Assembly (NCBI GenBank): GCA_965213625.1
Contig: CBDBZU010000004.1
Location: 3,456,001 to 3,520,000, forward strand
Source: a bacterium
GTDB taxonomy: Bacteria; UBA8248
Length of the DNA stretch: 64,000 bases
Reading direction: 5' to 3'
The notes beneath the pieces are model-generated. The model saw only the letters and a program-made list of their open reading frames with translations. It did not search any database and was not told the DNA's origin. Each line of letters opens with the position of its first letter. The first letter of the stretch is position 1. The position numbers and the translations under genes were made by a program. Below, piece by piece: positions 13,092 through 46,819 of this stretch.

Positions 13092-13104
13092 AACAGAACT
13101 TCCA

Positions 13105-13160
13105 AAAAGTGGAAATTTTTTACTTCGGCACAACTGGGGAAATTTACTTCGGCATTGACG
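13105..13160. mobile_element. IS21-family right end (IRR)
   Basis: Twice-repeated TTTACTTCGGCA unit ending ATTGACG just after istB; imperfect reverse complement of 22259-22311. Confidence 0.8.
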
Positions 13161-13416
13161 TCGATACCAAAAAAAGGGGACATTACGGCTTTGGGGCTAA
13201 CATCGACATGATTTCCTTATCAAAAGGGGGTGTCGTTTGCAGCCTGTCGTGGCACGCTATGAGAACGAACGGCTCGCCGAATTGGGGTTTGGCGCGTGCG
13301 CGAAACGGCCAGCGGAGTTCATTGGGAAAACGGAACGAGAGCCGTGCGGTCCACGGGCGGTGGAGCAGCAGCATACCGTTCGCAATTTTTACTACCAGAT
13401 TAGGAGAGTGAAAAAA

Positions 13417-16019: not shown

Positions 16020-18834
16020 GAAGGCTGACGTCGCCGACAAAGGGGTGGATCGGCAACGCAAAAAAAGCCTGCCTGCGCTGGCCACATTCCCTGAGTTCTA
16101 TCGAGCCATCAACGGGCGCGAGCCGTTTCCGTGGCAGGCCCGTTTGGCCGATCTGGTCGCCAGGGAGGAGCGGTGGCGAAGCGAGATCGGCGTTCCCACC
16201 GGGCTCGGCAAGACCGCTTGCCTGGACATCGCAGTCTGGTGGCTGGCATCGCAGGCGGACCGGGCGCCCTGCCGACGCACCGCGCCCACTCGAATCTGGT
16301 GGGTGGTCAACCGTCGCCTGCTAGTGGACTCGAGCGCCGATCATGCGCGGCGGATGGCCAATACGTTGTGCGATCCGGCAGCGGCGGAACTCGGCGACAC
16401 TGATCGGCAGGTCGTGGAGAGTATTGGCGACCGGCTGCGTGCGCTTTGGATGGACGCCAAAGCGGCGCCGCTGGATGTGATCAGCCTGCGCGGCGGTGTC
16501 GCCTCGCGCTCGCCGACCGATGCGGCACGTCCAACCATCATTCTATGCACACTGCCGATGTACGGCTCGCGACTGCTGTTTCGAGGTTATGGGTCTCGCT
16601 CGCGTTCGGTCGACGCCGCCATGGCCGGCACTGACAGCCTCGTGATCCTCGACGAGGCGCACCTTGCCCCACATCTGAAGTCCCTCATCGCGGCGTTGGC
16701 CGACTGCCATCCGACGGCGAGGGAGCTCCTCGGGGGAGGACGCGCGCGGCCGCAACTCGTCGCGCTCACCGCCACGGGCGACGCCGGCACGACGGAGCGG
16801 TTCGACCTCGACGCGGACGACGAGGCCAACACCGTCGTGCGCGAGCGCCTCGATGCGATGAAGCCGCTGCGATTGCAGGTCGCAGGCGCGGGCGATGCGT
16901 CCAAGTGTCTGGCCGATGCCGCGCTCGATCTGATCGATCCAAGCCCGCGACCCGTCACCTGTCTCGTATTTGCCAACTCTCCGAGAACGGCGCGGGCCAC
17001 ATTCGACCGCTTGCAGAAGGCAATGCCGCGTGCCGGGGCCGATGTGCTGCTGTTGACCGGCCTCGCCCGGGAGCGGGAGGCACAGCGCGTCCGTAAGCGG
17101 ATCCTGGATCCGGACTCCGGCATGGCGGCTGGTCAGGTCCTGGGCAGGCGTAAGTGCCACCTTGTCGTGGTGGCCACGCAAACGCTCGAAGTTGGCGCAG
17201 ACGTCGATGCAGAGTACTTGGTCACCGAGGCGTGCGGCGTCCGGGCGCTTACACAGCGGCTCGGTCGGCTAAACCGGCTTGGTCGCTTTCCGCACGCGCA
17301 AGCAACCTACGTCCATCTGCCACCGAAGCGGCGTGGTTCGAAGGGGACGGGAGCAACCTGGCCGGTGTACCAAGCGGAACCGGCGAAGGTGTTGGAGCAG
17401 TTGCAAGCGGCGTGCGGCGAGGACGGCACGGTCAACCTGTCGCCGCGGGTCGTTGGGCACACTCTGGGATTGCCCGGGGACGATCCAGGCCGCGCACCCG
17501 AAGTCCTTCCCGGCCTACTGTGGGAATGGACGAAGACGACCACACCTCCGGACGGCGAGGCACCTGTGGAACCGTATTTCAGCGGCATCGCGGCGCCTGA
17601 CTACTCGGTTTCGCTGCTCTGGCGTGCCCATGTGCCCGACCCTAGCAAGCGGCTGTGGCCGCGTCCGAGCGATCGCGAGGCCATCGATGTGCCTCTCAAC
17701 GATGTGCGGGCGATCCTCGCGGACGAGGAAATGTGTCGGATCGGTGCCAACGGGATCACCGTGGAGTCCGCGACAGTGGAGGACTTGCGGCCCGGCGACC
17801 GACTTGTGCTGCCGACGGACCGGGGCCTGATGGACGCGTTTGGCTGGAACCCGTCCTGTTCCGACCCCGTGGTGGATACCTCGTTGCAGGGCTTGGGCTT
17901 ACCCCTGGATGCGCAGGCGATTGAGCGGCTGTGCGGTCTGCGTCTGGAACGGTGGACGACGGCTGCGCTGGGTGACGTTGACGACGCGGATCAAATCGAC
18001 GAACTGGACCGGACGCACGCACTCAAAGAGATCGTGGCGGCGATTCGAGATGCCCCGGCACCGGCCGGCTGGGAGCGCGAGGAATGGACACGGTACACGC
18101 ATGCACTGATGCCACGGCTCTTGCAGCCCTGCAACGAGGTGCCCCGGTTGCCCATCCGCAGCCCTCGTGGAGAATTGCCCAATGACGACTTCGACGAGCT
18201 CTCGATCGGCGCAGCCGCGGTGGAACTGGATTGCCATGGCAATGCCGTGGGCAGGCGAGCGCAGATGATCGCAGAGCGCATGGGCGTGCCTCCGAACCTG
18301 TTGGCGACAGTTGTACGCGCCGCCGGGTTGCACGACATCGGGAAGGCCGATCCACGCTTTCAACGATGGCTCTCACCCGACCATCGGCACGATGGCCCGC
18401 TCCTTGCGAAATCCGACACACCGCGACACCGGTGGGAGGGCAAGCGCATTGCCGCTGGGTGGCCCCGCGGCGGCCGCCACGAGGACCTCTCGGCCCGACT
18501 GGTGCAGACCTGGCTCGAACGAGTGCCCGATTGGGGCACGCCCATGGAACGCGACTTGCTGGTGCACCTGGTGATCAGCCACCACGGCAAGGGCAGGTCG
18601 CTGGTCGCGCCGGCGGTCGACGGCATTTCGGCAACCGTGCGCGGCATGGTGGAAGGTGTCGTTGTGGAAGCGGACGCCGACCTCGGAAGCACCGACTGGG
18701 AGCAGCCTGCCCGGTTCCGACGGCTCGACGCGGAATTGGGGGCGTGGGGCCTCGCACTGCTGGAGGCGATTGTCATTTGCGCTGACCACGCCGTTTCGGC
18801 AGGCGTTCAGGAATTGGAGGAACACTACGGATGA
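16012..18834 (+). CDS. cas3: Type I-G Cas3 helicase with C-terminal HD nuclease
   Basis: PFPWQ, PTGLGKT, DEAH, ATQTLEVGAD, QRLGRLNR; C-terminal HDIGKAD...HE...HHG...AD. Confidence 0.93.
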   Translation: MTEKADVADKGVDRQRKKSLPALATFPEFYRAINGREPFPWQARLADLVAREERWRSEIGVPTGLGKTACLDIAVWWLASQADRAPCRRTAPTRIWWVVNRRLLVDSSADHARRMANTLCDPAAAELGDTDRQVVESIGDRLRALWMDAKAAPLDVISLRGGVASRSPTDAARPTIILCTLPMYGSRLLFRGYGSRSRSVDAAMAGTDSLVILDEAHLAPHLKSLIAALADCHPTARELLGGGRARPQLVALTATGDAGTTERFDLDADDEANTVVRERLDAMKPLRLQVAGAGDASKCLADAALDLIDPSPRPVTCLVFANSPRTARATFDRLQKAMPRAGADVLLLTGLAREREAQRVRKRILDPDSGMAAGQVLGRRKCHLVVVATQTLEVGADVDAEYLVTEACGVRALTQRLGRLNRLGRFPHAQATYVHLPPKRRGSKGTGATWPVYQAEPAKVLEQLQAACGEDGTVNLSPRVVGHTLGLPGDDPGRAPEVLPGLLWEWTKTTTPPDGEAPVEPYFSGIAAPDYSVSLLWRAHVPDPSKRLWPRPSDREAIDVPLNDVRAILADEEMCRIGANGITVESATVEDLRPGDRLVLPTDRGLMDAFGWNPSCSDPVVDTSLQGLGLPLDAQAIERLCGLRLERWTTAALGDVDDADQIDELDRTHALKEIVAAIRDAPAPAGWEREEWTRYTHALMPRLLQPCNEVPRLPIRSPRGELPNDDFDELSIGAAAVELDCHGNAVGRRAQMIAERMGVPPNLLATVVRAAGLHDIGKADPRFQRWLSPDHRHDGPLLAKSDTPRHRWEGKRIAAGWPRGGRHEDLSARLVQTWLERVPDWGTPMERDLLVHLVISHHGKGRSLVAPAVDGISATVRGMVEGVVVEADADLGSTDWEQPARFRRLDAELGAWGLALLEAIVICADHAVSAGVQELEEHYG

Positions 18835-19727
18835 ATGACTGCGTGTGCCGCGGATTGCCTGCCGGATGGGTCAACGGCTGGTTAGCTGCCGTGGGCGCCA
18901 CCGTGGTGGATCCACGATTGCGCCTGCATTGGACAACGGAAGACGCTCCTGTCGCGGTGCTGTCCTCGGAGTCACTGGATCCGGTCGATGCGTTGGTGGA
19001 GTCCTGGCCCGACCGGGAACTGCTGGACGACCTGCCGATTGCCACTAAATGGCGGAATGCCTGCAGGCTTGAACGCCAGGTGACGGTGGACGACTTCCGC
19101 GAGCGGGCTAGGGAAGCGCGCAGTACCTCGTATTCCTGGACGCTGTCCTCCACGCTGACGGACCTGAGCGTCGACAAAAATGGCAAGGTGGCTCACGCAC
19201 CGTTCGACGCCGCCGGCCCAGGGACGATCAAGTGGCTTCACTACCGCGTCCTGCGGCTTCACGAGAAGGTCGAACAGCCTGCTCGTTCGCGGCTCCACGC
19301 TTCCCTGATGGGGCAGGCAAGCCGAGTCCAGGACAACGGCTTGGGGTTTGACCAAAGCCGGCTGGGCTCCTTGGCGGACAAGACGGATCCTTGGGTGGAG
19401 CCTGTCGTCGAACTGCTGTCGTTCTTCGGCCTTGCCCTCTTTCCGATGCGGGGGAGCGGCGCCGACCGGAGGGACCGGGGGAGTCCAGATGAGAGGCAGC
19501 GCAGTTGGCGCAATCCTCCTCGCAGCGGCGACCCGCGAGAGTTCGTGTGGCCGGCCTGGGAGCAACCGCTTGACACCTGGGGTATCGATGCGCTGCTGGA
19601 CGTCTGGAACCCCTGGCGGCGGGACACATGGCGCCGGGTCGGCGTGCATGCCGGCTGGCACAGTGTCCGCTACCAGCCGCGGGCAACGGCCGACGCGACC
19701 CGGGCTATCGGGGCCGAGCGTCTGTGA
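18831..19727 (+). CDS. Probable small Cas8-like large subunit (Csb3-type)
   Basis: Translationally coupled between cas3 and cas4; N-terminal GL....NGWLAAVG resembles I-U Cas8 starts; only 298 aa. Confidence 0.65.
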   Translation: MNDCVCRGLPAGWVNGWLAAVGATVVDPRLRLHWTTEDAPVAVLSSESLDPVDALVESWPDRELLDDLPIATKWRNACRLERQVTVDDFRERAREARSTSYSWTLSSTLTDLSVDKNGKVAHAPFDAAGPGTIKWLHYRVLRLHEKVEQPARSRLHASLMGQASRVQDNGLGFDQSRLGSLADKTDPWVEPVVELLSFFGLALFPMRGSGADRRDRGSPDERQRSWRNPPRSGDPREFVWPAWEQPLDTWGIDALLDVWNPWRRDTWRRVGVHAGWHSVRYQPRATADATRAIGAERL

Positions 19728-20332
19728 ATCCCGAACCCGTGGTGGCGATCTCTGCGATCGAGCATTTCGCCTACTGCCCACGACAATGCGCCCTTATCCA
19801 CTGCGACGGAGTTTGGTGCGACAACACACACACGGCCCGAGGCACGCGGGCGCACCGTCGGGTTGACGGCGGAAAACATCGCACCGAACGCGGCAAACGC
19901 GTCCTTCGGGGAATCCCGCTTTGGTCCGAGTCGCTTGGCCTGACCGGCCGAGCGGATGTCGTTGAGGCGAAGGGGGAAGACATCCACCCCGTGGAGTACA
20001 AGTCGGGCACGAGACACGGTCTCGCCGCCGACCTGCAGCTCTGCGCACAGGCGCTCTGCTTGGAAGAAATGCTGGATGTGGACGTGCCCTGCGGGAGTGT
20101 GTGGTACGGAGGGCCGAGGCGGCGCGTCGAAGTGTGGTTTACGGCGTCACTCCGGCAGCAGGTGAAGGGCATCGTCGCCGAAATCCGCGACCAGCTATTG
20201 ACCGGCCGATTACCGGCCGCCGTCAACGATGGGCGCTGCAAGGAGTGCCAACTATTCCATCACTGCCTCCCAGGACCGACGAGCATGTCTCACAGAATCG
20301 AACGGTACATGTCCGAAGCGGTGTTTGTATGA
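19724..20332 (+). CDS. cas4: CRISPR-associated exonuclease Cas4
   Basis: ISAIEHFAYCPRQ, G.AD.VE, PVEYKSG, QLCAQALCLEEM, C..C.....C Fe-S cysteines. Confidence 0.95.
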   Translation: MNPEPVVAISAIEHFAYCPRQCALIHCDGVWCDNTHTARGTRAHRRVDGGKHRTERGKRVLRGIPLWSESLGLTGRADVVEAKGEDIHPVEYKSGTRHGLAADLQLCAQALCLEEMLDVDVPCGSVWYGGPRRRVEVWFTASLRQQVKGIVAEIRDQLLTGRLPAAVNDGRCKECQLFHHCLPGPTSMSHRIERYMSEAVFV

Positions 20333-21345
20333 GATACCTGAGCACGCTATACGTGCGCAGTCACAGGGCGAGGGTTGGGCACCGGCGGGGCTCGCTCACC
20401 GTGTCTCGGCCCGAAGGCAGACAACGTGTCCCGCTGGAGGGTATCGATGCTGTTGTGGTGCTCGGCGGCGCGCAGATGACCATGCAAGCGATCGATGCCT
20501 GCGTGGGGCGGGGCGTCCGCGTGGCGGTGTTGCGGCGTAATGGCGCGGTTCGCTTCGTCGTCAATGGGGCAACCGGAGGTAACGTGCATCTACGCATGGC
20601 CCTCTTTCAGGTCATTGCAGACGACTCCCGTGCGCTTGCCATAGCCAAGGCCATAGTGGGCGCCAAGCTGCAAAACAGTGCGAGGGTTGTGGGCAGGTGG
20701 TCGCGGGATGAAAAGGACAGTGCACGGAGCAGTGCCCTCGCGGACCGCGCTGAGCAGATCCGATCGCGGATTCCTCGCCTGAAGGACGTACAAACTGCGG
20801 ACCATGTGCGCGGGATTGAAGGGGACGCGGCAAGGATTTACTTCGGGGCAATGGGACGTGCAGTCGACTCGGTCGAACTGGGATTTTCCACAAGGACTCG
20901 ACGACCGCCGCGCGACCCAATCAACGCGATGCTTGGCTTCTGCTACAGCATGCTTGTCACGGAGTGCATCGGTGCCCTTGAAAGCGTGGGGCTCGACTAT
21001 CAGATGGGATTCTTCCACCGCCCTCGTTCCGGTCGTCCCTCGCTCGCCCTTGACCTCGTAGAGGAACTGCGCGCGTTGACAGACCGTTTCGTGGTGTCGA
21101 TGGTGCGCCGGCGACAGGTGAGTCAAGACAGCTTCCAGACCGTGCCCGGTGGGGCGGTGTATCTGACCGAAGACGGCAGGGAGTCGTTGATCAACGCATG
21201 GGAGGCCCACAAGGAGACCGAGGTGCCCCACCGAATCCTAGGGCAGAAGATCGGTCGTTGGGCGCTGCCGTCGGTCCAGGCAACGCTTCTCGCGCGCCAC
21301 TTGCGTGGAGACTTGCCAGCGTACCCGCCGTTCGTTCTGGCCTGA
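20329..21345 (+). CDS. cas1: CRISPR-associated endonuclease Cas1
   Basis: RGIEGDAARIYF, RRPPRDPINAMLGF.Y, GFFH, SLALDLVEE.R. Confidence 0.96.
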   Translation: MRYLSTLYVRSHRARVGHRRGSLTVSRPEGRQRVPLEGIDAVVVLGGAQMTMQAIDACVGRGVRVAVLRRNGAVRFVVNGATGGNVHLRMALFQVIADDSRALAIAKAIVGAKLQNSARVVGRWSRDEKDSARSSALADRAEQIRSRIPRLKDVQTADHVRGIEGDAARIYFGAMGRAVDSVELGFSTRTRRPPRDPINAMLGFCYSMLVTECIGALESVGLDYQMGFFHRPRSGRPSLALDLVEELRALTDRFVVSMVRRRQVSQDSFQTVPGGAVYLTEDGRESLINAWEAHKETEVPHRILGQKIGRWALPSVQATLLARHLRGDLPAYPPFVLA

Positions 21346-21349
21346 TCAC

Positions 21350-21640
21350 ATGGACGTCCTCGTCACCTACGACATTGCGGACACCGAGACGACCGGCGCT
21401 TCTCGACTTCGGCGCATCGCGGACGTTTGTGAAAAGTACGGACAACGAGTGCAGTACTCAGTCTTCGAGTGCAGGCTCTCGAAGACACGGTTGACCCGAA
21501 TGATCGGTGAAGTCCGCGATATTATTGAGCACGATGTCGACTCGGTAATCATCTACTGGTTCCCCAGAGGAGTCGAGAATGCCACGCTGCGGCTGGGGCG
21601 AGATGGAACTCACATACTCGGCAAGCCCTGGCTGCTGTGA
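21350..21640 (+). CDS. cas2: CRISPR-associated endonuclease Cas2
   Basis: VLVTYDI, RLRRIA..C..YGQRVQYSVFEC, DSV.IY. Confidence 0.95.
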   Translation: MDVLVTYDIADTETTGASRLRRIADVCEKYGQRVQYSVFECRLSKTRLTRMIGEVRDIIEHDVDSVIIYWFPRGVENATLRLGRDGTHILGKPWLL

Positions 21641-21821
21641 CGTCGTGCGAACCTTCGGTGATATTCTCGTCAGCGAGCCAGAAGCTGCTTGAAACGGCCA
21701 ATCAATGAGCTTTTGTGTCGTGTCTTGACCAACAGTGGTGCGCTTTGCATACCTTGGGACAGAAAAAACAACGATTCCGGTTGGCAAACGGTCGCTGCAG
21801 GCGCGATTCCGAACATTAGGG
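21641..21821 (+). promoter_or_regulatory. CRISPR leader
   Basis: Lower-GC non-coding stretch between cas2 and the first repeat. Confidence 0.65.
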
Positions 21822-22258
21822 GTTGTAGCCGGGGTCATACTCCGGCCTTCGTTGAGCGAGCCGAGGCGTCGCTAGTAGCCATTTGAAACGTGAAGTTGTA
21901 GCCGGGGTCATACTCCGGCCTTCGTTGAGCGTGGACTCAAGGGCTTGCGTGGCGACCAAGGTTTGGCCGTTGTAGCCGGGGTCATACTCCGGCCTTCGTT
22001 GAGCGGTGCCCAAGGAACCGACGCCAGCCATGGAACTCGGGTTGTAGCCGGGGTCATACTCCGGCCTTCGTTGAGCGGTATCCTTCGGAAACGGCGACAA
22101 TTTTTCCGTTTCTTGTTGTAGCCGGGGTCATACTCCGGCCTTCGTTGAGCGTTCTGGACGACCGCTAACTCTTGACACTATTGCAGGGTTGTAGCCGGGG
22201 TCATACTCCGGCCTTCGTTGAGCGCCATGTGTGTTACCTCTCGGTTGTCGGGCGGATC
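21822..22258 (+). CRISPR. CRISPR array: 6 identical 37-bp repeats, 5 full spacers plus a terminal 34-bp spacer-like segment
   Basis: Repeat GTTGTAGCCGGGGTCATACTCCGGCCTTCGTTGAGCG at 21822, 21895, 21969, 22041, 22115, 22188; spacers 36, 37, 35, 37, 36 bp; internal hairpin GCCGGGG/CTCCGGC. Confidence 0.98.
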
Positions 22259-24428: not shown

Positions 24429-24815
24429 TCATATTGAAGTATCGTTCAGGAACACAGCCTGGGACTCGCGAGCGTCTTTCATGATCCGGTCGAGGTCGTC
24501 CTTGCGTCCTTCCCGTACCAATTCATCCCGCTTCAGCGTGGAAAGGAGGTAAACCCCGCGATAGATACGCTCGATCTGCGCAGAGATTCCGGATGGTATC
24601 GGGCCGGAATCAGCGCCGGTTTCTTCTCCGGCGAGCGCCAACGCGGCGTTGCGAATGAACTCGGCAGCAGTGACTCCGCTCCGCCTGGCGGCGATTTCGA
24701 CCCGTTCCCATTCGGTATCGGAGAAGCGGATGGTCCTCGACATGCGCGCGTGGCTTTGTTTTTCTTCTGTGCCGGCATCGTCTCCGGTCGGTTTTTGGTC
24801 GATTCCGCTCATCAT
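24429..24815 (-). CDS. Ribbon-helix-helix relaxosome accessory protein (MobC/TrwA-like)
   Basis: RTIRFSDTEWERVEIAARRSGVTAAEFIRNAAL RHH pattern; GAGG RBS; adjacent to a candidate oriT; paralog at 60843. Confidence 0.7.
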   Translation of the reverse strand: MMSGIDQKPTGDDAGTEEKQSHARMSRTIRFSDTEWERVEIAARRSGVTAAEFIRNAALALAGEETGADSGPIPSGISAQIERIYRGVYLLSTLKRDELVREGRKDDLDRIMKDARESQAVFLNDTSI

Positions 24816-24906
24816 TTCTTATCCTCCATGCACATGGTTCGGACCTTAAATCGATAGAGTCCGGACCGTGAAACGGCTGGCTACAGCGTTCCTTGCGGCC
24901 CGGGCG

Positions 24907-25028
24907 GCGAATGCCGATCAGCATACATGGAGGAGGGGCGCTGTTTCCAGCGAATGTCGATTGACATTCGCGAGGTGCGAAGTAAAGGGATTTCAAAGAG
25001 ATATGGGCGAATGCCGATCGACACTCGC
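24907..25028. repeat. Three imperfect palindromes GCGAATGYCGATYRRCA (putative RHH binding sites)
   Basis: Copies at 24907-26, 24950-71 (GCGAATGTC-GATT-GACATTCGC) and 25007-28. Confidence 0.7.
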
Positions 25029-25107
25029 TCTCCCAACAAAGACGGGGCGGTATTTGACGGCGTTTGAGCAAGTGACTGTATGCCTGGTGCGCGCTTGATC
25101 TGCGCCC

Positions 25108-25157
25108 TGCAGCCCGCTGCGTGGGGTGTGTAACCCGAAGCGCCGAAGGGCGGCTAA
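25108..25157 (+). other. Candidate oriT 1 (MOBF nic after 25129)
   Basis: TGCGTGGGGTGT^G at 25118-25130 matches the F-plasmid nic core; conserved at 45576 and, as a variant, at 60385-98. Confidence 0.75.
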
Positions 25158-25518
25158 TTATGCCGTTATCCGGCGAAGCGTCATCGGCGGTAATGGCCGA
25201 TGCATGAACGCTTTGGAGCCAACGCGGCGATTGAGCGAGATGACCGGGCGCGACCACGGGACGCGTACCGTGTCCTCTTCCCGTGAACAGGGGTAACAAA
25301 AGCAGGCGTGAGTCGCAAGGGAGCGGGTGAGTTTTTCACACGCCGCGCACCGCGGGACTCAGGTGAGCGGCATGTGGTTTCACGCGTTACCTTTACGCAA
25401 CGTGGAGAGGTTCACAAGTTACCCGCTCGTCAGGGAGCGGGCGGTCGTGAGTGGAGGAAGGCTTGTTCGGAGGGAAAAGGGCCGCGCCGCCTGTCGACGC
25501 GACCCGTGGAGTGCCACA

Positions 25519-26472
25519 TCAGGCGGTGATTCTCTGGACGGGAATGCCGAGCGCCCGGGCCTTGTCGACGAGGTTGTCGGTGATGCCCGAACCCGGGAAG
25601 GCGATCACGCCCTTGGGCAGGAGTGCGAGGAGTTCGTCGTTGCGCCGGAAAGGAGCGGCCCGTCCATGCGCCTCCCAGTCCGGCTTGCATACCACCTGGT
25701 GAACGCCGTTGCGCTCGGCCCATCCCGCCGCGATTTTCTCAGCGCCGGGGCCGCCGCCGTGGACGAGGACGACGTCGGCGTACTTGGCCTTGACCTTGTC
25801 GAGGTGGCCGATGATTATGCCCGCATCGCTCGCCTCCTTTCCTCCCGCGACGGCGACGAGGGTTCCCTGGGGGAGGTGGGAGGTGTTCGCGCGGTCCTTG
25901 CGCGCCCGCTGGAAGTCGCGCGCCTCGATCACGGCGGAGGTGAGCTTGCCGGTCTGGCTGACGTGCGAGCCTCGCCTCGGCCGCCATACCTCGCCGGTCT
26001 CGATGCGGTAGGCCTCTGCGGCCGTGTCCCTGAGCCCCTCGAACGCATCGCGCCTGTCATTCAGGTTCTGGGCGTGGTCGGTCTTGAGTTCGAGTTCGCG
26101 CGATCTGATCTCGGAGCCGTCCTGCTCGCGCTGGAGTTCGCGGACCCCGGGGATGAGTTTGTCGGCGGCGCGGTCGAGCCGCTGTGTCTGGGCGTCTAAG
26201 GCGTTGACGAACCCCCACAGGAGGCTCGCCCGCTCATCCGCAAGCTGCGTTCCGTCAGGCGCAGCTTCTGCGAGTGCGCCGAAGGCCCTGATGACGGCGG
26301 CGGTTGCCTCGCCCTCGTCCCACACGGGGCGGTTGTCGAACTCGTCCGGCCCCGGGGTCACGCCGAACAGGGCGGCCTGCTCGCAGACCATGGCGGTGAA
26401 AGATTCGTTCCGTGCTTCGTGTTCCGTGTGCTCGTGCATGATGCTCTCCTTGTGGTCGTGTGTAGCGGTCAT
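25519..26472 (-). CDS. DUF2493 / YspA-like SLOG-domain protein, copy 1
   Basis: C-terminal VAVAGG...VLVHGG..GAE.IA..WA...RRN...VIAFPG.GIT.NLV.KA...GIPV; helical N-terminus. Confidence 0.85.
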   Translation of the reverse strand: MTATHDHKESIMHEHTEHEARNESFTAMVCEQAALFGVTPGPDEFDNRPVWDEGEATAAVIRAFGALAEAAPDGTQLADERASLLWGFVNALDAQTQRLDRAADKLIPGVRELQREQDGSEIRSRELELKTDHAQNLNDRRDAFEGLRDTAAEAYRIETGEVWRPRRGSHVSQTGKLTSAVIEARDFQRARKDRANTSHLPQGTLVAVAGGKEASDAGIIIGHLDKVKAKYADVVLVHGGGPGAEKIAAGWAERNGVHQVVCKPDWEAHGRAAPFRRNDELLALLPKGVIAFPGSGITDNLVDKARALGIPVQRITA

Positions 26473-26493
26473 CGTTCACTCCTTTGGTTGTCC

Positions 26494-26865
26494 TCAAGCG
26501 AGGGGATGGTTGAATTCAGGAAGAGCGTAGCCACGCTCGTTGCGCCCCACTTCTTTGGGCATCTCGTCGAGATATTTGTCTGCCCACTCGGCGGCGCGCG
26601 CGAGGACGTCGCCGTGGCACGGAAGAGGATGGCAGTGGCAGCCGAGCTCGCAGCCAAGAAGGTCGGCGAGTTCGTAGAGGTCCAGCTCCTCGCGCCGGAT
26701 TTTTCCCCACAGCCATTGCCGGTATTTTTCGATGACGGCTTCTCTGTCGCCGTCCTGTCCGACGCGGAAGGGATTTCCCCACTTCGTCATGCGGTCGATC
26801 CTCACCATCAAGCCGCTGCCGAGTTCATCGACATAGTCGTTCAGGTTCACCACGGTGGTTTCCAT
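26494..26865 (-). CDS. DUF4326-domain protein, copy 1
   Basis: IDR.TKWGNPF, R..VIEKYR.WL, LGCHC.P.PCHGDVL. Confidence 0.88.
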   Translation of the reverse strand: METTVVNLNDYVDELGSGLMVRIDRMTKWGNPFRVGQDGDREAVIEKYRQWLWGKIRREELDLYELADLLGCELGCHCHPLPCHGDVLARAAEWADKYLDEMPKEVGRNERGYALPEFNHPLA

Positions 26866-26900
26866 GCCTTACTCCTTTCCAGAGAGTTAACGGATGCGCT

Positions 26901-27350
26901 TCTTGCGTCCCATTTTCAGCACGTAAGGGCGCCGGTCGGTGTATCCGGCGCCCGCAGGCGGGCGAATCAAGGGCTCGTCATTTTCCGGGGGGTTCCCGAA
27001 AAACACGCTTCATCGTTTTTTGGGGGGTACCGGCAAATGATGGCCGCTTGCGGCCACCCTTTATTCGCCCGGCGTTCGTGCTAAAATGAGGACGCCAAGA
27101 GAGAGACAGTTGATTCGCCACCGGGACACAAGAGTTTTTGGGTGTTTCACGATGAAGGCGAAGCTCATCGGGAAACAATCTCTCATGCTGCGGAGAGGGT
27201 CATTCCGGGCCGTTATTCGGCCCGGAATTCCCGCAGCGGGGGGTGGATTGAGCCACTGTTCAGGGATGTGGTGATTGCAGGCGCATGCCGATCTTCCGTG
27301 AACATGGTTTATCGTTCACGGAACCGGAAGTTTACCGGGTGTTCCCGGTA
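26901..27350. promoter_or_regulatory. Conserved two-domain structured non-coding element (candidate ssDNA promoter/ssi), copy 1
   Basis: Nested inverted repeats; conserved with compensatory changes at about 47228-47678 and 58271-58723. Confidence 0.7.
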
Positions 27351-27422
27351 GAGGAGAGGGCCGGCAGGACGGGAAAGGCGCGGCGCTTCGGCGGTGGACT
27401 TCCTCCGGACAACGGGCATAAG

Positions 27423-27458
27423 AAAAGGGGTCGACGCGCGTGATGGCGCCGACCCCTT
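27423..27458 (-). terminator. Intrinsic terminator after ssb
   Basis: AAGGGGTCG...CGACCCCTT hairpin followed by a T-run on the minus strand; repeated at 47753-87. Confidence 0.7.
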
Positions 27459-27464
27459 GTGAGC

Positions 27465-27884
27465 CTAGAACTTGATGTCGTCCTCCTCGCCCCCGACCCC
27501 TGCGACGACGGGCGCGCCGTTTTCGTTTCCGTTCACCTTGTCGAGGAACTGGATTTTCCCGCCCGGAGCGATGAGTATCTCGGTGGAGAAGCGCTCCGAA
27601 TCCTCCTCATCCTTCTTCCAGCGGCGGGTCTGGAGCTTGCCCGCGACATATACCAGGCGGCCCTTCTTCGCGTGGCGTTCGAGCATGTCCACCAGGCCGG
27701 GCTGGAAGGTCACGACCCGGTGCCATTCCGTTTTGTCGATACGGTCGCCGGATTGCCTGTCCACGTACCCCTCATCAGTGGCAATCGATATGTTGGCGAC
27801 GCGTCCCCCGCTCGCGAGATGGTTGATGGTGACGTCGGTGCCGAGACGCCCGATCAGTTCCGCACGGTTCAGTCCGAATGCCAT
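27465..27884 (-). CDS. ssb: Single-stranded DNA-binding protein, copy 1
   Basis: LN.AELIGRLG, KTEWHRVV.F, KG.LVYV.GKLQTR.W, acidic tail DDIKF. Confidence 0.95.
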   Translation of the reverse strand: MAFGLNRAELIGRLGTDVTINHLASGGRVANISIATDEGYVDRQSGDRIDKTEWHRVVTFQPGLVDMLERHAKKGRLVYVAGKLQTRRWKKDEEDSERFSTEILIAPGGKIQFLDKVNGNENGAPVVAGVGGEEDDIKF

Positions 27885-27963
27885 TTTGATACTCCTTGTA
27901 GTGTGGGGTGAATGATAAAGTCGAGGAGCCGGGAATCCTCTCTCCCCGGCCCCCCGGTTCGCC

Positions 27964-28098
27964 CTATACGCCAATCAACTCATCCGACTCCTCTTTCGCC
28001 TCGGTGCGGATGACTCGGATCGTGTAGGCGCCCAGTCCGATCTCGACGAGCAGTTCGTCACTGGTGAACATCTCGTAGTCGAAGTCGTTCTCGTACAT
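27964..28098 (-). CDS. Unannotated 44-aa acidic protein
   Basis: MYENDFDYEMFTSDELLVEIGLGAYTIRVIRTEAKEESDELIGV; GAGAGGAGG RBS; paralog at 48302-48433. Confidence 0.7.
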   Translation of the reverse strand: MYENDFDYEMFTSDELLVEIGLGAYTIRVIRTEAKEESDELIGV

Positions 28099-28283
28099 GG
28101 CCGTGCCTCCTCTCGGGGTTGTCGCCGACGGCGGGAGCCTGAGACCGTCTCCCTCTCCCTGCCGGGCATTTGCCCGGCTCCCCGCTTCGCTCTCACTCTC
28201 GAGAGGAGGTCCTCACCCGGCGGGGAGCGCTCGCGGAACGCGCCTGCCCTTGCATCGGGCCCTGAATTATTGTGGGATGAGGC

Positions 28284-28664
28284 ATGGACGGACGAAGGCG
28301 CACGGGAAGATTCAGGTTCTGGTTACCGGCGCTCCTGTGGCTGCCGGCGGGGCTTCTCGCGGACGAGTTTCTGCGCACGGGCTCCGCGGAGCAGGTGGTG
28401 ACGCCCTCCTCGCTCATGGAGTTGCCGGCGGTTGCTCCGTTCGGCCTGCCGCTTGCGCTCACATGCCGGCGTTTGAATCGCTCGGGCTATCCGGGTCCCG
28501 CCCTGATGGCGTGGTTGGCCCTCGGCGCAGCCTCGGCAGGGGGTCTCTTCGGTCCGCTCCCCGTGGGCGTTCAGGCGCTCGCAGCCTGCCTTCCCGTCTG
28601 GGTTTTGACGTGGTGGCTCCCCCCCCGCCTGAAATTCGATCCGTTGTTACGGCGCCCGAAGTGA
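28284..28664 (+). CDS. Hypothetical membrane protein, copy 1
   Basis: About four hydrophobic segments; paralog at 48637-49043. Confidence 0.6.
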   Translation: MDGRRRTGRFRFWLPALLWLPAGLLADEFLRTGSAEQVVTPSSLMELPAVAPFGLPLALTCRRLNRSGYPGPALMAWLALGAASAGGLFGPLPVGVQALAACLPVWVLTWWLPPRLKFDPLLRRPK

Positions 28665-28826
28665 GGGAGGTCCCGCGGGCCCTTCCGCGCCGGGCGCTAA
28701 GGCCCCATCGGGTGCCTGACTACTGACGACGGGCCGGCGGCGTAGCAGGGCGGCGTCGAACCCTCCCCCCCTCCGTCGTCGGCCCGACGGCGGTACGTAC
28801 CCACGCCGTGCTGGCTCGGATGACGC

Positions 28827-29639
28827 TCACCACCCGGCGAGCCTGGATATCACGGGCGCGTCCTCGATGACTTCCACTTCCTCTCGGGAGAGCCTCTTGA
28901 AGGCGAGGTACATCGCCACCTCTTCCCAGGAGTCGAGGGGCCCGTGCTCGGCGCCCGTGGCCACTTCAACTATGGTGTAGCGCGGCGGAAAGACCGGCAT
29001 TCCCTTGTGCTCACCCGAGGAGTGGTATGATCGCACCGAGCAAGGGACGCACCTCGATGCTCCTTACGTGTCGGATGATTGGCAATCCACGCAGATTTCA
29101 AGGGCGCGCCTCTCGCGATAGCGTTTCCTGCTCGCTGCGTTCTTTCGCGGACGGCGCTTCATGTCCCTTGCGGCGCACGAAGCGCACGTCGAAGCCTTTT
29201 CGATTGCGGCGCTTCCACAACGACCGCAAAGGCCGGAGGATCTCCTTTTTTCATAAAGCTTCTTTTCCGCTGCGCGACGCGAATCCCTGCAAATTTCGCA
29301 GAGGGCGCCGCCCTCGGCGGGTTTTCGTTCACCGCAAGTCGTGCAGAGCCCGGCTTCGATACGCTCGCGCCTGCGTTTTCTCGCCCTCTCGCGCGCCATG
29401 CGCCGGCGGCTCTCGGGACAGCGCCCGCCGTATGCGGATCCCTCGAGTTTTCCCCTGGCGTATCGGGCGCGCTCGGATTTGCGTCCTCTCTCGAGGCAGT
29501 TTGCGCAAAGACTTCGTTCGGGCGCAGGCCGTCTGCGCCCGCATTTGATGCACATCCCTCGCGCTCTGCGCGATTCGGCCCTCCGCCTGTGGCGTTCGCG
29601 CTCGCATTCGCGTCGAATATCCAAATTCTTGTGGGGCAT
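28827..29639 (-). pseudogene. Arg-rich poly-CxxC (Zn-ribbon repeat) protein, copy 1, in-frame stop
   Basis: Collinear with the intact copy at 49162-49977; TAA at 29064-66. Confidence 0.75.
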
Positions 29640-29689
29640 GGTTTCCTCCGAATGTCGTTCGTCTGACGGCGAGACGTCTAGCGCGGCAA

Positions 29690-29992
29690 TTATCCCCGGC
29701 TGAGCATCCGGCCCCACACGAGGTGCTCGCCCCAGAGCTGAAGGCCGCTTTCGGGGACCTTGAGCCCCGTGCATACGATGAGCTCGTCCCGTGCGGGACG
29801 CATCTCCCGCACCGCCCGGCGCGAGGCCGTCACGCGTTTGCTCTTGCGCCCCCCGTTCCCCGGGGCGGCTACGGGACGAATGCCGCCCCGGGCATCGGAT
29901 TTATAGCGTTTGACTTCGTATCTCTCATCCGCCAGGCCAGGGCCTGAGAGATGGGTGAGGAAGGTGTTGGCTTCGGGTTTCGGTTTACGCAT
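29690..29992 (-). CDS. Conserved basic hypothetical protein (MRKPKP...), copy 1
   Basis: AAGGAGG RBS; strongly similar paralog at 50058-50357. Confidence 0.7.
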   Translation of the reverse strand: MRKPKPEANTFLTHLSGPGLADERYEVKRYKSDARGGIRPVAAPGNGGRKSKRVTASRRAVREMRPARDELIVCTGLKVPESGLQLWGEHLVWGRMLSRG

Positions 29993-30330
29993 CGCGCGCC
30001 TCCTTGGGTGGGTGATCGGGAAGGCGAAGAACGTCCTCTCGCAGACCTCCTTCCGCCGCCCCCTCCCGGCCCGGCTCCGCCTCTTCGAGAGGTAGGGCAA
30101 GGAAATGACGCCGAGCAAAACCTAGCGAAAAAATTGTGGAGTTCGCCTTGATTGCTTCAGGTATGCGAGGCGCCGGTCGGGTCGGGCGGTGCCACGCAGC
30201 AACCGGTGCAGGTTTTTGTGGAAACCCCGCGCTCCTGGTTGCGCGCTGCGATTGCGGGAAAGATAATATGGCCAAGTGGAGGAAAAGGGTTCCGCCCGCC
30301 GTCGCGCCATGATATTCGAGCGGCGACGTG

Positions 30331-33300
30331 ATGCCGACTGAAAAATCCTGTCGGGTCGTGGCGAGAACCGAGGAGACGACCATCCGCCCGCTGCAGGAAC
30401 ATTCGGCATCAACACGGGAGACGCCCCGTCGCAGATACGGGATAATTCATACCAGTTCTGCTGTCTGTCGATAGACCTGGAAGTCAGCAGAAATGGCGTT
30501 ATCCACGCCTTGGGTGCGGTGCGCACGGATACCGGCGAAAGCCTGACGCATACAGGCGGCGGCTTGACGGCCGCGCTGGAAAAGCTCGACGATCTCGCCG
30601 AGGGGGCGTCCTTCATCCTGGGCCACAACCTGCTCGCCTTCGACCTGCCTCATCTCGCTGCCGCAAAACCGGACCTCAAGCTCTTGAAGCTGCCCGTGGT
30701 GGATACGTTGCGCATTAGCCCGCTCGCCTTTCCCCGCAATCCCTATCATCGCCTGGTCAAGCATTACCAGGACGGTGGGCTCAAACGCGGGCGGATCAAC
30801 GACCCGGAACTCGATTCCCGCCTCGCGCTGGAAGTCTTCGCCGATCAGCGCGAAGCGCTTCGGAAGGCTCCGCCGGACCTGCTGGCGGCATGGCATTGGC
30901 TGACCACGCCGGAGTATGAAGGCGCGGACCGCGCCCTGGACGACCTGTTTTCAGCACTCCGTAGCTCACGCCGACCGACCGACGCCGAGGCCTGCACGGC
31001 GATAAACCGCCGCCTGGAGGGCGTCACCTGCGTGATATACGGGCGCGAGGTCCTGGCGGAGGCGGACAAGCGGGGCTGGGCCCTGGCCTACGCCTTGGCG
31101 TGGCTTTCAGTGGCGGGCGGCAACTCGGTCAGGGAGGCGATCGGCAACTCGGTCATGCCGCCCTGGGTACGCCACCAGTTCCCCGAAGCGGGAGAGTTGG
31201 TGCGCCGCCTCAGGGACACCGCCTGCGCCGATGTATCTTGCGTCTGGTGCCGCGAGATGCACGACGCCCGTAAGGAATTGAAGCGTTGGTTCAGCTTCGA
31301 GGACTTCCGGCCCGAGCCCAAAGACAATTCCGGGCGTCCCATGCAGCAGACCGTCGTCGAGGCGGCGATGCGCGGGGAGCACGTCCTCGGCATCCTGCCC
31401 ACGGGAACCGGCAAGTCGATCTGCTACTAGGTCCCGGCGCTCTCGCGCTACGAGAAGACAGGCGCGCTCACGGTGGTCATCTCGCCCCTGGTCGCGCTGA
31501 TGGCTGATCAGGTGGCGGGACTGGAAGCACGCGGGATCGGCTGCTGCGTGACCATCAACGGGCTTTTGTCGATGCCCGAGCGGGCGGACGCGCTGGAACG
31601 GGTGCGGCTGGGGGACGCGGGCATCCTGATCGTCTCGCCGGAACAGCTCCGCTCCCGTTCCCTGCGCCGGGCGCTCGACCAGCGGGAGATCGGCGCCTGG
31701 GTGGTGGACGAGGCCCACTGCGTGTCGCAGTGGGGGCACGACTTCCGGCCCGACTACCGCTACGTGGGCCGCTTCATCCGGGAGAAGGCGGGCGGCGGGC
31801 CGGTACCCCCCGTGCTGTGCCTGACCGCGACCGCCCGGCCCGGCGTCGTCGAGGACGTCGTGGGCCATTTCCGGGAAAAGGTCGGGGTCGAATTGAAGGT
31901 GTTCGACGGCGGCGCCGAGAGGCCCAATCTGACGTTCGAGGTCATCCCGACTACGGGTGGTGAGAAGTTCGCCCATATCCACCAGGTGCTGGAATCGCAC
32001 CTGCCGTCTGAGATGCCCGGCGGCGCCATCGTCTACTGCGCGACACGGCAGGGCAGCGAAGATATCGCCGAATACCTGAAACAGAAGGGCGTGGCGGCAG
32101 AGCATTTTCACGCGGGCCTCTCGCCGGAGATCAAGAAGGACGTGCAGCGCCGCTTCATCGACGGCGAGTTGCGCGTCATCGCGGCGACCAACGCCTTCGG
32201 CATGGGGATCGACAAGTCCGACGTGCGCCTTGTCGTCCACGCCGACATCCCGGGGTCGCTGGAGCACTATTTTCAGGAGGCGGGCCGCGCCGGGCGGGAT
32301 GGGGCGCCGGCGCGGTGCGTGCTGCTCTACACGGCGGACGATGTGGAGCGCCGGTTCGGCATGTCGGCGCGCTCAAGGCTCACCCGGCGGGAGATACACG
32401 GCATTCTCCGGGCCTTGCGCAGTCTGGACCGCAAGAAACACGCCGGCGGCGAGGTGGTGGCCACGGAGGACGAGATACTCGGGGAGGACGAGGAGAACGC
32501 GTTCGAGCGGGATTCGGCTACCGACGATACCCGGGTGCGCACCGCCGTCGCCTGGCTGGAGGAATCCGAACTTCTGGCCCGCGAGGAGAACGTGGTGCAT
32601 GTGTTCCCCTCCTCGCTCCGGGTGCGTTCGGTCGAAGAGGCCAGGGAACGGCTCGGGAGGGCGGACATTACGCAGGACTATCGCCGCCGGTTGCTGCGCA
32701 TCGTCGAAACGCTCATCGACGCCCCCCCGGACGATGGCGTCAGCACCGATGAGCTGATGGCGGTCTCGGGGCTGAGCCCCGAGGGTGTGCGGGGCGCATT
32801 GCATGATCTGGAGCGGTTAGACATCTCCAGCAACGACACCGCGCTGACCGCGTTCGTCCACGCCGGCGTGGAGCGCAGCTCCCGAAAGCGCCTCGAAGAA
32901 GCGGTGACCTTGGAGACTGCCCTGATAGCGCACATGCGCGAGACGGCGCCGGATATGGGCAAGGGAGAGACGGCGCCGCTGCATCTGCGTATCGCCGCCC
33001 AGATCCTGAGGGATCAGGGATTGTCCGACCCGCTGCCGGAACGCCTGTGGCGCATCGTCCGCGGCATTGCCCGGGATGGCCGAGGCGAGGACGGCGCAGG
33101 CGGGAGCCTGACGGTGCGGAAACGGGACGCGGAGACGGCGCATGTGACGCTGCGCCGGGAGTGGAGAGACTTGGAGGAGACCGCCGAACTTCGGCGCGAG
33201 GCTGCCTCACGGCTACTGGAACACCTCCTTGACTGCCTGCCTCCCGGCAGTCGAGGCGTGGATCTGCTAGCGGAAACCACGCTCGGGAAACTACGGGCGG

Positions 33301-35588
33301 CAATCGAGTCCGACCTGATATTGAAGAGCAAGGTCCGACACCCTGAGAAACTCTTGGACCGCGCTCTGCTGTGGCTGCACGAGATGGAGGTCATCCGCCT
33401 GAACAAGGGTCTCGCCGTGTTCCGCCGCGCCATGACCATCCGCCTGAAAAACCGGCAGCGGCGCGGCTTCGCGAACGCGGACTTCGAACCCCTCGCCCTT
33501 CATTACAAGGGACAGGTGTTGCACGTCCACGTGATGGCGGAGTTCGCCGAGCGCGGCCTTGACCCCAAGCGCGATGCGGAGCGCCTCGCGAAGGACTACT
33601 TCACGCTGAAGGAGGAGGTGTTCCTCGCGCGCTGGCTGCCGGGCCGGGATATTGAGATCGGACGCCAGACCACGCCTGAGTCGTGGCAGGCCATCGTCCG
33701 AAGCCTGAACAACCCCGTCCAGCAGCGTATCGTCGCCGATGCCCGCGAGCAGACGAACGTGCTCGTGCTCGCGGGTCCCGGCTCGGGCAAGACCCGGGTG
33801 CTGGTGCACCGCATCGCCTATCTGATCCGCGTGAGGCGGGAGAACGCCCGCAGCATCCTGGCCATGGCCTACAACCGTCACGCGGCGGTCGAGATACGCC
33901 GCCGCCTCGGGGATTTGATCGGCGACGACGCCCGAGGGGTGACCGTCCTTACCTGCCAAGCCCTGGCGATGCGCCTGGCCGGAAGCAGCTTCACGAGCCG
34001 GGCGGAGCGCCCGGACGACGATGCGTTCCGGGATGTGCTCCGACGCGCGGTAGGGTTGCTTCGAGGGGAAGGCCTGCCGCCGGACGAGGCGGACGAGCAA
34101 CGCGAGCGTTTGCTGGCGGGCTTCCGGTGGATACTAGTGGACGAATACCAGGACATCAACGCCGATCAGTACGAGTTGATCTCGGCCCTGGCAGGGCGGA
34201 CGCTCGCGAACAAGGATGACAAACTCACCTTGTTCGCGGTCGGAGACGACGACCAGAACATCTACGCATTCAACGGCGCCTCGGTGGAGTTCATCCGCCG
34301 TTTCGCGGCGGACTATGAAGCCCGCCCCGCCTATCTTACGAGCAACTACCGCTCCACGGCCCACGTCATCGCAGCGGCCAATTCGGTGATCGAGAAGGCC
34401 CGCGAACGGATGAAGGTTGACCATCCCATCCACGTCAACCGGGCGCGCGAAAAGGACCCGCCCGGCGGCGCGTGGGAAGAACTGGACCCGGTCTCGCAGG
34501 GGAGAGTGCAGATACTGCCGGCGGGCCGCGACCCGATCCACCAGGCGCGGGCCGTCATGGCGGAACTGAAGCGCCTCTCGGAGCGTGAGCCGACCTGGAA
34601 CTGGTCGCGGTGCGCGGTGATCGCGTGCGAGTGGAAGTACCTGGTCCCCGTGCGCACCTTCTGCGAAGCGCAAGGCATTCCGGTTAAGATGGGGGACGAG
34701 GAGATTCCGGGCTTCTGGCATCTGCGCGAGACCCGCGCGTTCCTCGAATGGCTGCGCGCGCGAAAGCCCCGCGTCGTCGACGGGGCGGCTCTCAAGAATC
34801 GGGTAGAAGGTAACCCGTCAAGTCCCTGGCACGACCTGTTGCGGCAGGCCGTCGAGGAACACGCGCTGGAAACCGGCGGAGCGGAGACGCCGGTGGATCA
34901 CTTTATCGAATGGCTGGCGGAGTGGGGACGGGAGGTGCGCCGGCGCCAGCGCGGACTGCTGCTATCGACCGCGTATCGCGCCAAGGGACTGGAATTCGAC
35001 CATGTGGCCGTGCTTGATGGTGGCTGGGACCGCGTCGGAAACGGCGTAGATAAGGATGCGCCGCGCCGTCTGTACTACGTGGCCATGACGCGGGCCCGGC
35101 ATACCCTGACACTCGCGCGCTTCGATGAATCACACGTGTTCCTGGACGCCCTGGCCGGCCATCCTTCCGTGATGCGCCACAAGCCGGCCGGGCTCCCGCC
35201 GGCCCCCGCGTCGCTCGGGTATCACTACGTTCGCCCCGCTCTCCGGGACGTGGACCTGGGCTTCGCCGGACGCTTTCGGCCAAGCCACCCGCTCCACCGC
35301 ACCATCGCAGGCCTGTCGCCGGGCGATCCGCTCGGGACGCGCATCACCAGCCAGGGACGCTGGGAGTTGCTCGACCGGAGGGGCGCGGTGGTAGGGCGTC
35401 TCGCCGCTGGTTTCAAACCGCCGCCCGGCACCCGTTGCCGCTCCGCCGAAGTGTGGGCCGTCACCGGGTGGAGCCGTGAGGCTTCTGATCCTGGGTTTCA
35501 CGACTCCATACGATGCGACGCCTGGGAAGTGGTCGTACCGGAACTCGTATTCGAGCCGGGTCGTCAGGCGACCACGGCCTCGACGTAG
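30331..35588 (+). pseudogene. 3'-5' exonuclease-RecQ-UvrD fusion helicase, disrupted
   Basis: SIDLE/GHN..FD exonuclease motifs, [22 protein letters not shown], then [26 protein letters not shown]; TAG at 31428-30 (CY*VPAL) and a probable 5' frameshift. Confidence 0.85.
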
Positions 35589-40835: not shown

Positions 40836-41079
40836 CGACAATACAATGCATGACGACATTGCGGTCCGCAGGAACGGGGAAGCCGCTTGCTGGCTCCGGA
40901 TATGATCAACCGATATGGCCATATGGGCTTGTCCCATATGGGAGCGCAACCCTGGCGCCGTTTTTCGCTCACACCGATGGTTCCTGCGCCGTGATTCGAT
41001 CTGCCCGGTTGGTATACGCTTTACGCAGGCGGATTTGTTTGATAGAAATGCTCGGAGAATAGACCCTAAACTCCATGGT

Positions 41080-45387: not shown

Positions 45388-45565
45388 GAGATGTTCTCCT
45401 TTCCGGTTACCTGAGATAGCCGTCCGTTCGGAGGGAACGGAAACGGCGGTTCCGGGAAGAGAACACGCCCGCGCGCAAGGCCGCAGATACAGGATGGTTC
45501 CGTCTAACCTGTTGTCTTGTAAGGGGATACGCTTCCTGGATAAGGCTCGGTCGGGACTCGCTCGG

Positions 45566-46798: not shown

Positions 46799-46819
46799 CG
46801 TTCACTCCTTTGGTAGTCC

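Follow-up and report, generated by a model that had tools for sequence, protein, structure and literature searches.

A hairpin that is probably a single-strand promoter in the leading region of conjugative islands of an uncultured bacterium

The window analysed here, a 64,000-nucleotide stretch of bacterial DNA (contig CBDBZU010000004.1, positions 3,456,001 to 3,520,000 of the forward strand), contains a 200-nt hairpin at positions 26901–27100, between an ssb gene and a DUF4326 gene of a conjugative island. Judged on its sequence, the hairpin is probably a single-strand promoter of the leading region that is active only while the DNA is single-stranded. Single-strand promoters explain how anti-defence genes are expressed from incoming conjugative DNA before it is duplex, and those mapped so far are all from enterobacterial IncF and IncI plasmids. 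If our reading is true, they extend to chromosomal conjugative or mobilizable islands of an uncultured lineage, with an unrelated sequence family. An earlier note on this DNA had proposed that the hairpin assembles a sigma-70 promoter only in single-stranded DNA (ssDNA), gated by extrusion of a side hairpin, and fires into the DUF4326 ribosome-binding site. The core of that proposal agrees with our sequence tests of polarity, folding strand, and position of the -10 box, and the gating by the branch does not stand.

The window's own genome contains 11 copies of the hairpin, and each of them lies between an ssb and a DUF4326 gene (11/11). The copies come in two architectures: 6 are branched (type A), including all three in the window, and 5 lack the side hairpin (type B). 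Branched and unbranched forms of one promoter, in the same genome and before the same gene, amount to a natural experiment.

Structure of the hairpin and its promoter elements

We folded the + strand of 26880–27120 as ssDNA and obtained -69.3 kcal/mol, compared with -41.9 ± 3.7 for shuffled sequences (z -7.4; 0 of 200 shuffles as good). The fold is the branched structure that had been described. In the outer stem, 26901–23 pairs with 27077–100, leaving a bulged C at 26917 and a bulged A at 27089; the inner stem pairs 26960–73 with 27057–70 and has a single C.T mismatch; and a side hairpin stands at 26927–53, with a 9-bp stem and a 9-nt loop (GGGCGCCGG-9 nt-CCGGCGCCC). The - strand of the same stretch also folds, with z -8.1. 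When we ranked the whole window by a GC-corrected 240-nt sliding fold, the three hairpin copies took ranks 1, 2, and 3 of 1595 windows (residual z -6.3, -5.4, and -4.8). Copy 2 lies at 47228–47428 on the + strand and has its own nick motif at 45577–45594, and copy 3 lies at 58523–58722 on the - strand in an inverted module.

The two arms can be read as the two strands of a promoter. The 3′ arm (27057–27100, + strand) would be the non-template strand, with the stem reaching to about +14. On the 5′ arm, the proximal part (26901–26923) would be the template of the -10 box and the start region, and the distal part (26957–26973), which contains the C.T mismatch, lies opposite the -35 box. The side hairpin is placed on the template arm, within the -35/-10 spacer. 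The arms are joined by a variable apical domain with two sub-hairpins (26974–27056), which has a 30-nt insertion in 17 of 34 type A sequences and is of unrelated sequence in type B.

On the 3′ arm we find, as had been noted, TTTATT at 27060–65, a 16-nt spacer, a TG at 27079–80, and TAAAAT at 27082–87, and the gene-sense elements TTGATT (26970–65) and TGAAAAT (26918–12) are indeed 46 nt apart. The extended -10 box, TGcTAAAAT, is invariant and lies 13–14 bp from the base of the stem. In 56 of 56 distinct sequences of the family GTGCTAAAATG is identical, a count that is biased because the extraction pattern itself demanded GCTAAAATG; a locus outside that pattern (L066) has TAGAAT in place of TAAAAT, keeping A2 and T6. 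The bulged template C at 26917, which lies inside the -10 box between the partners of 27082 and 27083, is likewise invariant in 56/56 distinct sequences.

Placing the start 7 nt after the -10 box gives a predicted +1 template base of 26906 ± 1, close to the position near 26905 suggested before. Transcription from there would yield a predicted 41-nt leader with the GGAG ribosome-binding site of DUF4326 (26866–26900, - strand), and this segment is kept in 11/11 own-genome copies. In one metatranscriptome run, represented by contigs, we found fragments at 26834–26927 and at ~27056–27194 that overlap the arms. These begin at neither predicted start, and as contigs they lack strand and ends and may come from DNA carry-over.

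Two hairpin types and unequal promoter arms

We extended the family by extracting 79 elements from 88 loci, some of which are the same place obtained by two routes. After collapsing identical sequences, 56 distinct sequences remained, 34 of type A and 22 of type B. By blastn, the hairpin has matches in 13 of the 22 other genomes of the genus, with up to 19 matching pieces per genome, and in 0 of 19 genomes from 8 other genera of the family. Among the copies found, none lies outside the ssb-DUF4326 gap. Hairpin copy 2 is 97% identical to copy 1, compared with 87–89% for the flanking genes.

Type B has the outer arms, the leader, and the ribosome-binding site in common with type A, and its promoter stem is one continuous helix (fold z -8.6). 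The interiors of the two types are unrelated, yet a -35-like box is equally placed on the 3′ arm: the TTGACC of type B aligns at 27061–66, compared with 27060–65 for the TTTATT of type A, giving the same 15/16-nt spacing. Copies without the side hairpin, which are 5 of the 11 own copies and 22 of the 56 distinct sequences, keep the same promoter stem and downstream gene. This contradicts a gate formed by side-hairpin extrusion and leaves the hairpin promoter itself in place. On sequence grounds the side hairpin appears optional and not required for the promoter, although it is maintained as a helix, since it covaries and varies in loop length (in 3 sequences the loop is only 4 nt).

In duplex DNA, the + strand boxes are 15 bp apart and point away from the gene, and the gene-sense elements are 19 bp apart in type B or 46 bp apart in type A. 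The usual spacing between -35 and -10 boxes is 17 ± 1, and therefore neither duplex orientation has normal spacing. The view that the duplex lacks paired boxes needs amendment to this extent: a pair is also present in the duplex, pointing away from the gene, and its 15-nt spacer probably disables it.

The two arms of the stem differ in length. From the first -35 base to the last -10 base, type A measures 27 nt on the promoter arm (15-nt spacer) and 58 nt on the template arm, the excess being the side hairpin plus 4 extra bases. The same span in type B is 27 nt on the promoter arm (15-nt spacer) and 31 nt on the template arm, with the 4 extra bases present as bulges. Our hypothesis is that the promoter's dependence on the folded single strand comes from the unequal lengths of its arms rather than from branching itself, the side branch being an extreme case of a lengthened template arm. 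It is conceivable, although we hold this only tentatively, that a short promoter-arm spacer (15 nt) and a long template arm form a rule under which only the folded strand is workable and both duplex orientations are dead. Such a rule, if true, would give a simple search criterion for any genome and a mechanistic reason for shut-off in duplex DNA. A less likely extension is that the duplex boxes fire the other way, into the flank at 27101–27424, so that promoter direction switches with strandedness.

Covariation and the strand that folds

The pairing is well preserved across the family, with standard pairs in 99.6% of 2547 cells of the type A alignment (34 distinct sequences). In a test of covariation across these sequences, 7 of 75 type A pairs have changed on both sides, whereas column shuffles give 3.0 ± 0.7 (none of 500 reaches 7) and slid partners 0–3. 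Four of these covarying pairs are in the outer stem, 2 in the side hairpin, and 1 opposite the -35 region. The last one (columns 69–208) occurs as GC 12, GU 10, and AU 11 times, and the two side-hairpin pairs (columns 39–57 and 40–56) covary as GC/AT and CG/TA, with G.T intermediates. The side-hairpin covariation reported for copy 3 was recovered at 58670–58696 (GGGCATCGG/CCGATGCCC).

The non-Watson-Crick pairs are strongly asymmetric. Read on the + strand, type A has 154 G.T cells and 7 A.C cells and type B has 95 and 0, for a total of 249 vs 7; counted by pair columns, type A has G.T in 18 and A.C in 4. Since these G.T pairs would be C.A mismatches on the - strand, the strand constrained to fold appears to be the + strand. 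This is the template strand of the genes rather than their mRNA, so a structure acting in the mRNA is unlikely.

The hairpin lies beside a predicted oriT

The hairpin lies near a predicted origin of transfer (oriT). The oriT core at 25104–25157 (+ strand) consists of an inverted repeat, GCAGC-CC-GCTGC, followed by GTGGGGTGT|GTAACC, with a predicted nick at 25129/25130. The nick motif, GCGTGGGGTGT|GTAACC, occupies 25119–25136 on the + strand, and the 11 bases 5′ of the bar (25119–25129) match the substrate of F TraI, TTTGCGTGGGGTGT^GGTGCTTT (PMC2504302), at 11 of 11 positions. The motif lies 1.77 kb to the left of the hairpin. It is part of a 50-nt block left of the SLOG-domain gene that is conserved in 11/11 own-genome modules, in which a 5-bp inverted repeat is followed by GCGT-NNNN-GTGT-G. 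The repeat arms covary (GCAGC/GCTGC, GCACC/GGTGC, and GCATC/GATGC). All 11 own-genome modules have the block on the same strand, 1556–1775 nt from the hairpin. Among loci of other genomes with enough flank, 32 of 44 have it on the same strand, at 1579–1810 nt, and 0 on the opposite strand.

A nick motif in this orientation predicts transfer of the + strand, with the DNA right of ~25130 entering first. This would place the hairpin in the leading region, on the transferred strand, which is the template of the downstream genes. From left to right, the order is a NikA-like gene, oriT, the SLOG-domain gene, DUF4326, the hairpin, and ssb, and the four genes are all in - sense. We checked the same features in plasmid F, where the nick motif is on the template strand of ssb and psiB, both of which point toward oriT, and traM is on the other side of oriT, pointing away. 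The window is thus arranged as the mirror image of F.

The transfer machinery is of the F type and is encoded at 154–11813 (+ strand), where Pfam reveals TraN, TraF, TraH, TraG, the coupling protein (6739–8961; PF02534), and a TrwC/TraI relaxase (8958–11813; PF08751, E 3.5e-86). The genome has two further complete TrwC relaxase copies, one of them 7 kb from hairpin copy B1, and PF03432, PF03135, and PF03389 are absent from it. The idea that conjugation genes were absent was dropped once PF08751, PF02534, and the Pfam scan had revealed this system. On the trailing side of oriT is a gene for a ribbon-helix-helix, NikA-like relaxosome accessory protein (24429–24815, - strand; PF21983, E 5e-6, exactly at the cut-off). 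Integrases close the islands 5–20 kb further on. Most of the 11 modules are without transfer genes nearby and look like mobilizable relatives of the full element.

Proposed mechanism and alternative explanations

From these features we infer polymerase binding, a start site, dependence on the single strand, and a role for the downstream genes, in the following sequence of events. A relaxase would nick the + strand at ~25129/25130, and its 5′ end would be first into the recipient. About 1.8 kb later the hairpin would enter and fold, so that its 3′ arm, with the -35-like box, TG, and TAAAAT, serves as the non-template strand of a promoter of sigma-70 type and its 5′ arm as the template. RNA polymerase would open the -10 region, eased by the bulged template C, start near template base 26906, leave the stem at its base, and continue along the incoming strand. 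This would produce the mRNA of DUF4326 and the SLOG-domain protein before a complementary strand exists, and the same transcript may also prime synthesis of that strand. Conversion to duplex would then remove the hairpin and shut the promoter off.

Several observations weigh against this mechanism. The -35 box of type A is weak, with TTTATT having 3 of 6 consensus matches (the TTGACC of type B is good), and at the best -35 alignment the spacer has 15 nt, fewer than is usual in duplex promoters. A sigma-70 consensus scan of 26400–28200 reported zero promoters. The organism is known only from metagenome-assembled genomes (MAGs), and for its polymerase we assume the preferences of the sigma-70 consensus in general. 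Motif identity is the basis on which the nick site is predicted, and 12 of the 44 loci fall outside the strict oriT pattern. The alignment consists of close kin of one genus, with a mean column identity of 89% and 56 of 75 pairs that never vary; because the sequences are such close relatives, the shuffle control overstates significance, and we regard the type A covariation as moderate, not overwhelming. Selection may not be the whole cause of the G.T excess, part of which could come from C-to-T mutation biased toward one strand; such a bias would itself suit a strand that spends time unpaired. Outside the genus, 4 DUF4326 loci from two other genera of the same class have no such hairpin. A further 33 DUF4326 loci from Alpha- and Gammaproteobacteria, Binatia, and Acidobacteria MAGs have no -10-like hexamer, and no such hairpin, when their template strand is scanned for at least 5 of 6 matches at offsets 60–600, about 30–570 nt upstream of the match. 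The hairpin thus appears to be tied to certain leading regions and not to the DUF4326 family.

Of the other explanations, the one we take most seriously, although we consider it unlikely, is that the hairpin mainly serves DNA synthesis, either as an ssi/ssoA-like primer site or as a roadblock that delays conversion to duplex, with DUF4326 expression secondary or absent. Structure, strand, and location fit this equally well, and the structured flank at 27101–27424 adjoins the hairpin. In other systems Frpo is reported to prime DNA synthesis in vitro (PMC7690428), and ssp2 of F is reported to stall complementary-strand synthesis until host UvrD melts the hairpin (10.64898/2026.01.09.698686); the islands here carry UvrD-like helicase genes. 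However, all 11 own-genome copies have the conserved leader, the ribosome-binding site, and DUF4326 at a constant distance from the stem base, and if the hairpin were only a roadblock or a primer site, there would be no need for an invariant extended -10 box so placed relative to that base. In addition, ssb is closed by an intrinsic terminator (27425–27458, - strand, from a terminator scan) and the scan found no ordinary promoter in 26400–28200, so the DUF4326/SLOG-domain operon needs its own promoter. The primer or roadblock role and the promoter role may also coexist.

The remaining explanations do without a single-strand promoter altogether, and we consider each of them improbable. An ordinary duplex element, in which the + strand boxes drive a rightward non-coding RNA over the flank, with the palindrome serving as operator or arising as a by-product, would use boxes that do read correctly on the + strand of the duplex (TTGACC-15-TGcTAAAAT in type B) and would account for a flank that is non-coding, mostly at least 90% identical, and folded into hairpins with the + strand G.T pairs a + sense RNA would show. 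Yet an RNA starting at ~27094 leaves the selection on left-arm pairing (26901–26973) and its G.T bias unexplained, the spacer is 15 bp, and with no + strand terminator after the flank the RNA would run antisense into ssb. The metatranscriptome fragment at that place begins upstream of the -35 box and not at a rightward start, a weak indication given that it is a contig. We find it slightly harder still to believe that the hairpin is an RNA structure, such as a processing or stability element, in a - sense read-through mRNA from ssb to DUF4326. The - strand does fold and the RNA-library contigs overlap both arms, but the 249 G.T cells would be mismatches in such an RNA and only 7 cells point the opposite way, the terminator stands between ssb and the hairpin, and the hairpin has no Rfam match (no family reaches the gathering score over the whole window, and none has E ≤ 1 in 24800–28200). 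Least credible is a functionless palindromic repeat, selfish or neutral. The many copies per genome recall such repeats, and against this stand the fixed location in the ssb-DUF4326 gap, the covariation, and the 97% identity of a hairpin whose neighbouring genes have diverged to 87–89%.

Comparison with known single-strand promoters

A single-strand promoter of the leading region has its closest counterparts in Frpo1 and Frpo2 of F and ssi1–3 of ColIb-P9 (class 1), which according to the available text are likewise in the leading region, on the transferred strand, and beside ssb (PMC9849209, PMC12672017). They are described in these sources as long stable hairpins that rebuild -35 and -10 boxes, with the incoming strand as template, transcription toward oriT, and an expected shut-off in duplex DNA. 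The hairpin in the window appears to resemble Frpo in location, strand, and stable folding, and less clearly in its -35 and -10 boxes, and yet not to be homologous to it by sequence. A blastn search with 26866–27130 against 72,556 plasmids gave 0 matches, and the hairpin has no detectable similarity to Frpo or ssi. It is also smaller, with 200 nt compared with ~310 nt for Frpo2 of F, and its branching differs. We computed the fold of F Frpo2 and obtained one unbranched hairpin, whereas type A has a three-way junction inside the promoter spacer. Simple scans of the transferred strand of F Frpo2 found no consensus -35/-10 pair. Unlike Frpo and ssi, the hairpin is carried not by a plasmid but by a chromosomal integrative and conjugative or mobilizable element (ICE/IME) of an uncultured marine-type bacterium, assigned to Nitrospinota in some records, and the downstream genes are DUF4326 and the SLOG-domain gene.

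Promoter-like hairpins of single-stranded DNA are also recognised by RNA polymerase in the ssoA-type origins of rolling-circle plasmids and in the sso of ICEBs1, structures that lead to no gene. In the ssoA-type origins a short primer ends inside the structure with no gene following, and the RSB and CS-6 motifs are conserved.

The mechanism is known to have several independent sequence families: the promoters of classes 2 and 3 in pESBL and F are hairpins unrelated in sequence, which were picked out by their fold energy ahead of early operons (klcA, ardA, and a methylase) (PMC12672017). These are enterobacterial and have mapped 5′ ends, and the text available for them makes no mention of branching (PMC12672017). 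The Frpo′/Frpo* candidates, recognised by their -35/-10 boxes and fold, are putative hairpin promoters that precede anti-defence genes in leading regions beyond the Enterobacteria (PMC11541004). They were seeded from four example islands plus BLAST, and the main text reports none for this lineage, although its supplement may overlap with our set (PMC11541004). Our literature search for a branched Frpo found none; an earlier description may be present in the original structural papers or in the Samuel 2024 supplement.

We observed a similar layout in a cyanobacterial MAG. At locus L086 (2691–2910, - strand) an ArdA gene and an unknown open reading frame (ORF) precede a hairpin of 220 nt that is folded by the template strand (z -6.3), and after it comes a DUF4326 gene with 44% identity. 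Its 3′ arm has TTGACA-15-TATAAT, a T-rich and partly mismatched partner lies opposite the -10 box, and a side hairpin lies on the template arm between the -35 box and the spacer. The gap before ArdA at the same locus has no fold (z -0.2). A search for close relatives of the cyanobacterial DUF4326 found none, so this hairpin stands without a covariation test. We regard it as a candidate cyanobacterial single-strand promoter, a lead rather than a proof. If the same layout holds there, it would suggest a general design rule, with branched forms recurrent rather than a curiosity.

Neighbouring genes and other features of the islands

The first gene downstream of the hairpin encodes DUF4326 (26494–26865, - strand; PF14216, E 9.7e-24) and is found beside 11/11 own-genome hairpins. 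The second gene of the presumed operon encodes a 317-aa protein with a C-terminal YspA/SLOG domain (25519–26472, - strand; PF10686, E 5.9e-22). In the available text of PMC9503650, DUF4326, often fused to SLOG, Macro, or NADAR, is proposed to process ADP-ribose-derived molecules in conflict systems, and leading regions are described as rich in anti-defence genes with Frpo-like promoters (PMC11541004). By this analogy the DUF4326 and SLOG-domain proteins are likely a counter-defence pair, and a single-strand promoter would mark their genes as early-entry genes. The ssb gene of the island (27465–27974, - strand; PF00436) is also present beside 11/11 own-genome hairpins. In the third module the DUF4326 gene (58818–59023) is split between two reading frames, and this inverted module is probably decaying.

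Between the hairpin and the ssb terminator is a structured non-coding flank (27101–27424, + strand; z -5.95). Over its first ~280 nt, most positions are at least 90% identical across 55 distinct sequences that include both hairpin types. Two of its pairs covary, and the + strand has 98 G.T vs 6 A.C. A + strand ORF in the flank (from 27152) was rejected, as the copies continue in three different frames after residue ~21. The flank may act in priming, as an SSB-exclusion module, or as a + sense RNA.

The islands carry varied cargo. In the stretch that separates the relaxase gene from oriT (12456–22224), the conjugative element carries a type I CRISPR-Cas system with Cas_GSU0053 (13237–14628), Cas3 (15961–18834), Cas1 (20101–21345), and an array of 6 repeats (21820–22224), as well as an IstB/IS21 fragment (12456–12881). 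Three large UvrD-like helicase genes are present (31473–35588, 37833–40835, and 61628–64000), of which one is a fusion with DEAD-box domains and another with Top1 zinc ribbons. The cargo also includes an AbiEi/AbiEii toxin-antitoxin pair (40915–42580), and the first island ends in two tandem tyrosine integrase genes (42894–45807). Inside the long ORF call of the second integrase lies the nick motif of the second module, and therefore the true start of this ORF is probably further downstream. Altogether, three modules stand head to tail or inverted within 40 kb.

The + strand has an AT skew of -0.16 to -0.24 (T over A) across the leading regions at 26000–30000 and 46000–50000, and this T excess could reflect gene orientation or deamination of the transferred strand. 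Finally, a run of ~13 AGCCG pentanucleotide units (51056–51124) lies just inside a 1744-aa Calx-beta ORF (50923–56157), whose frame it could shift by slipped-strand mispairing.

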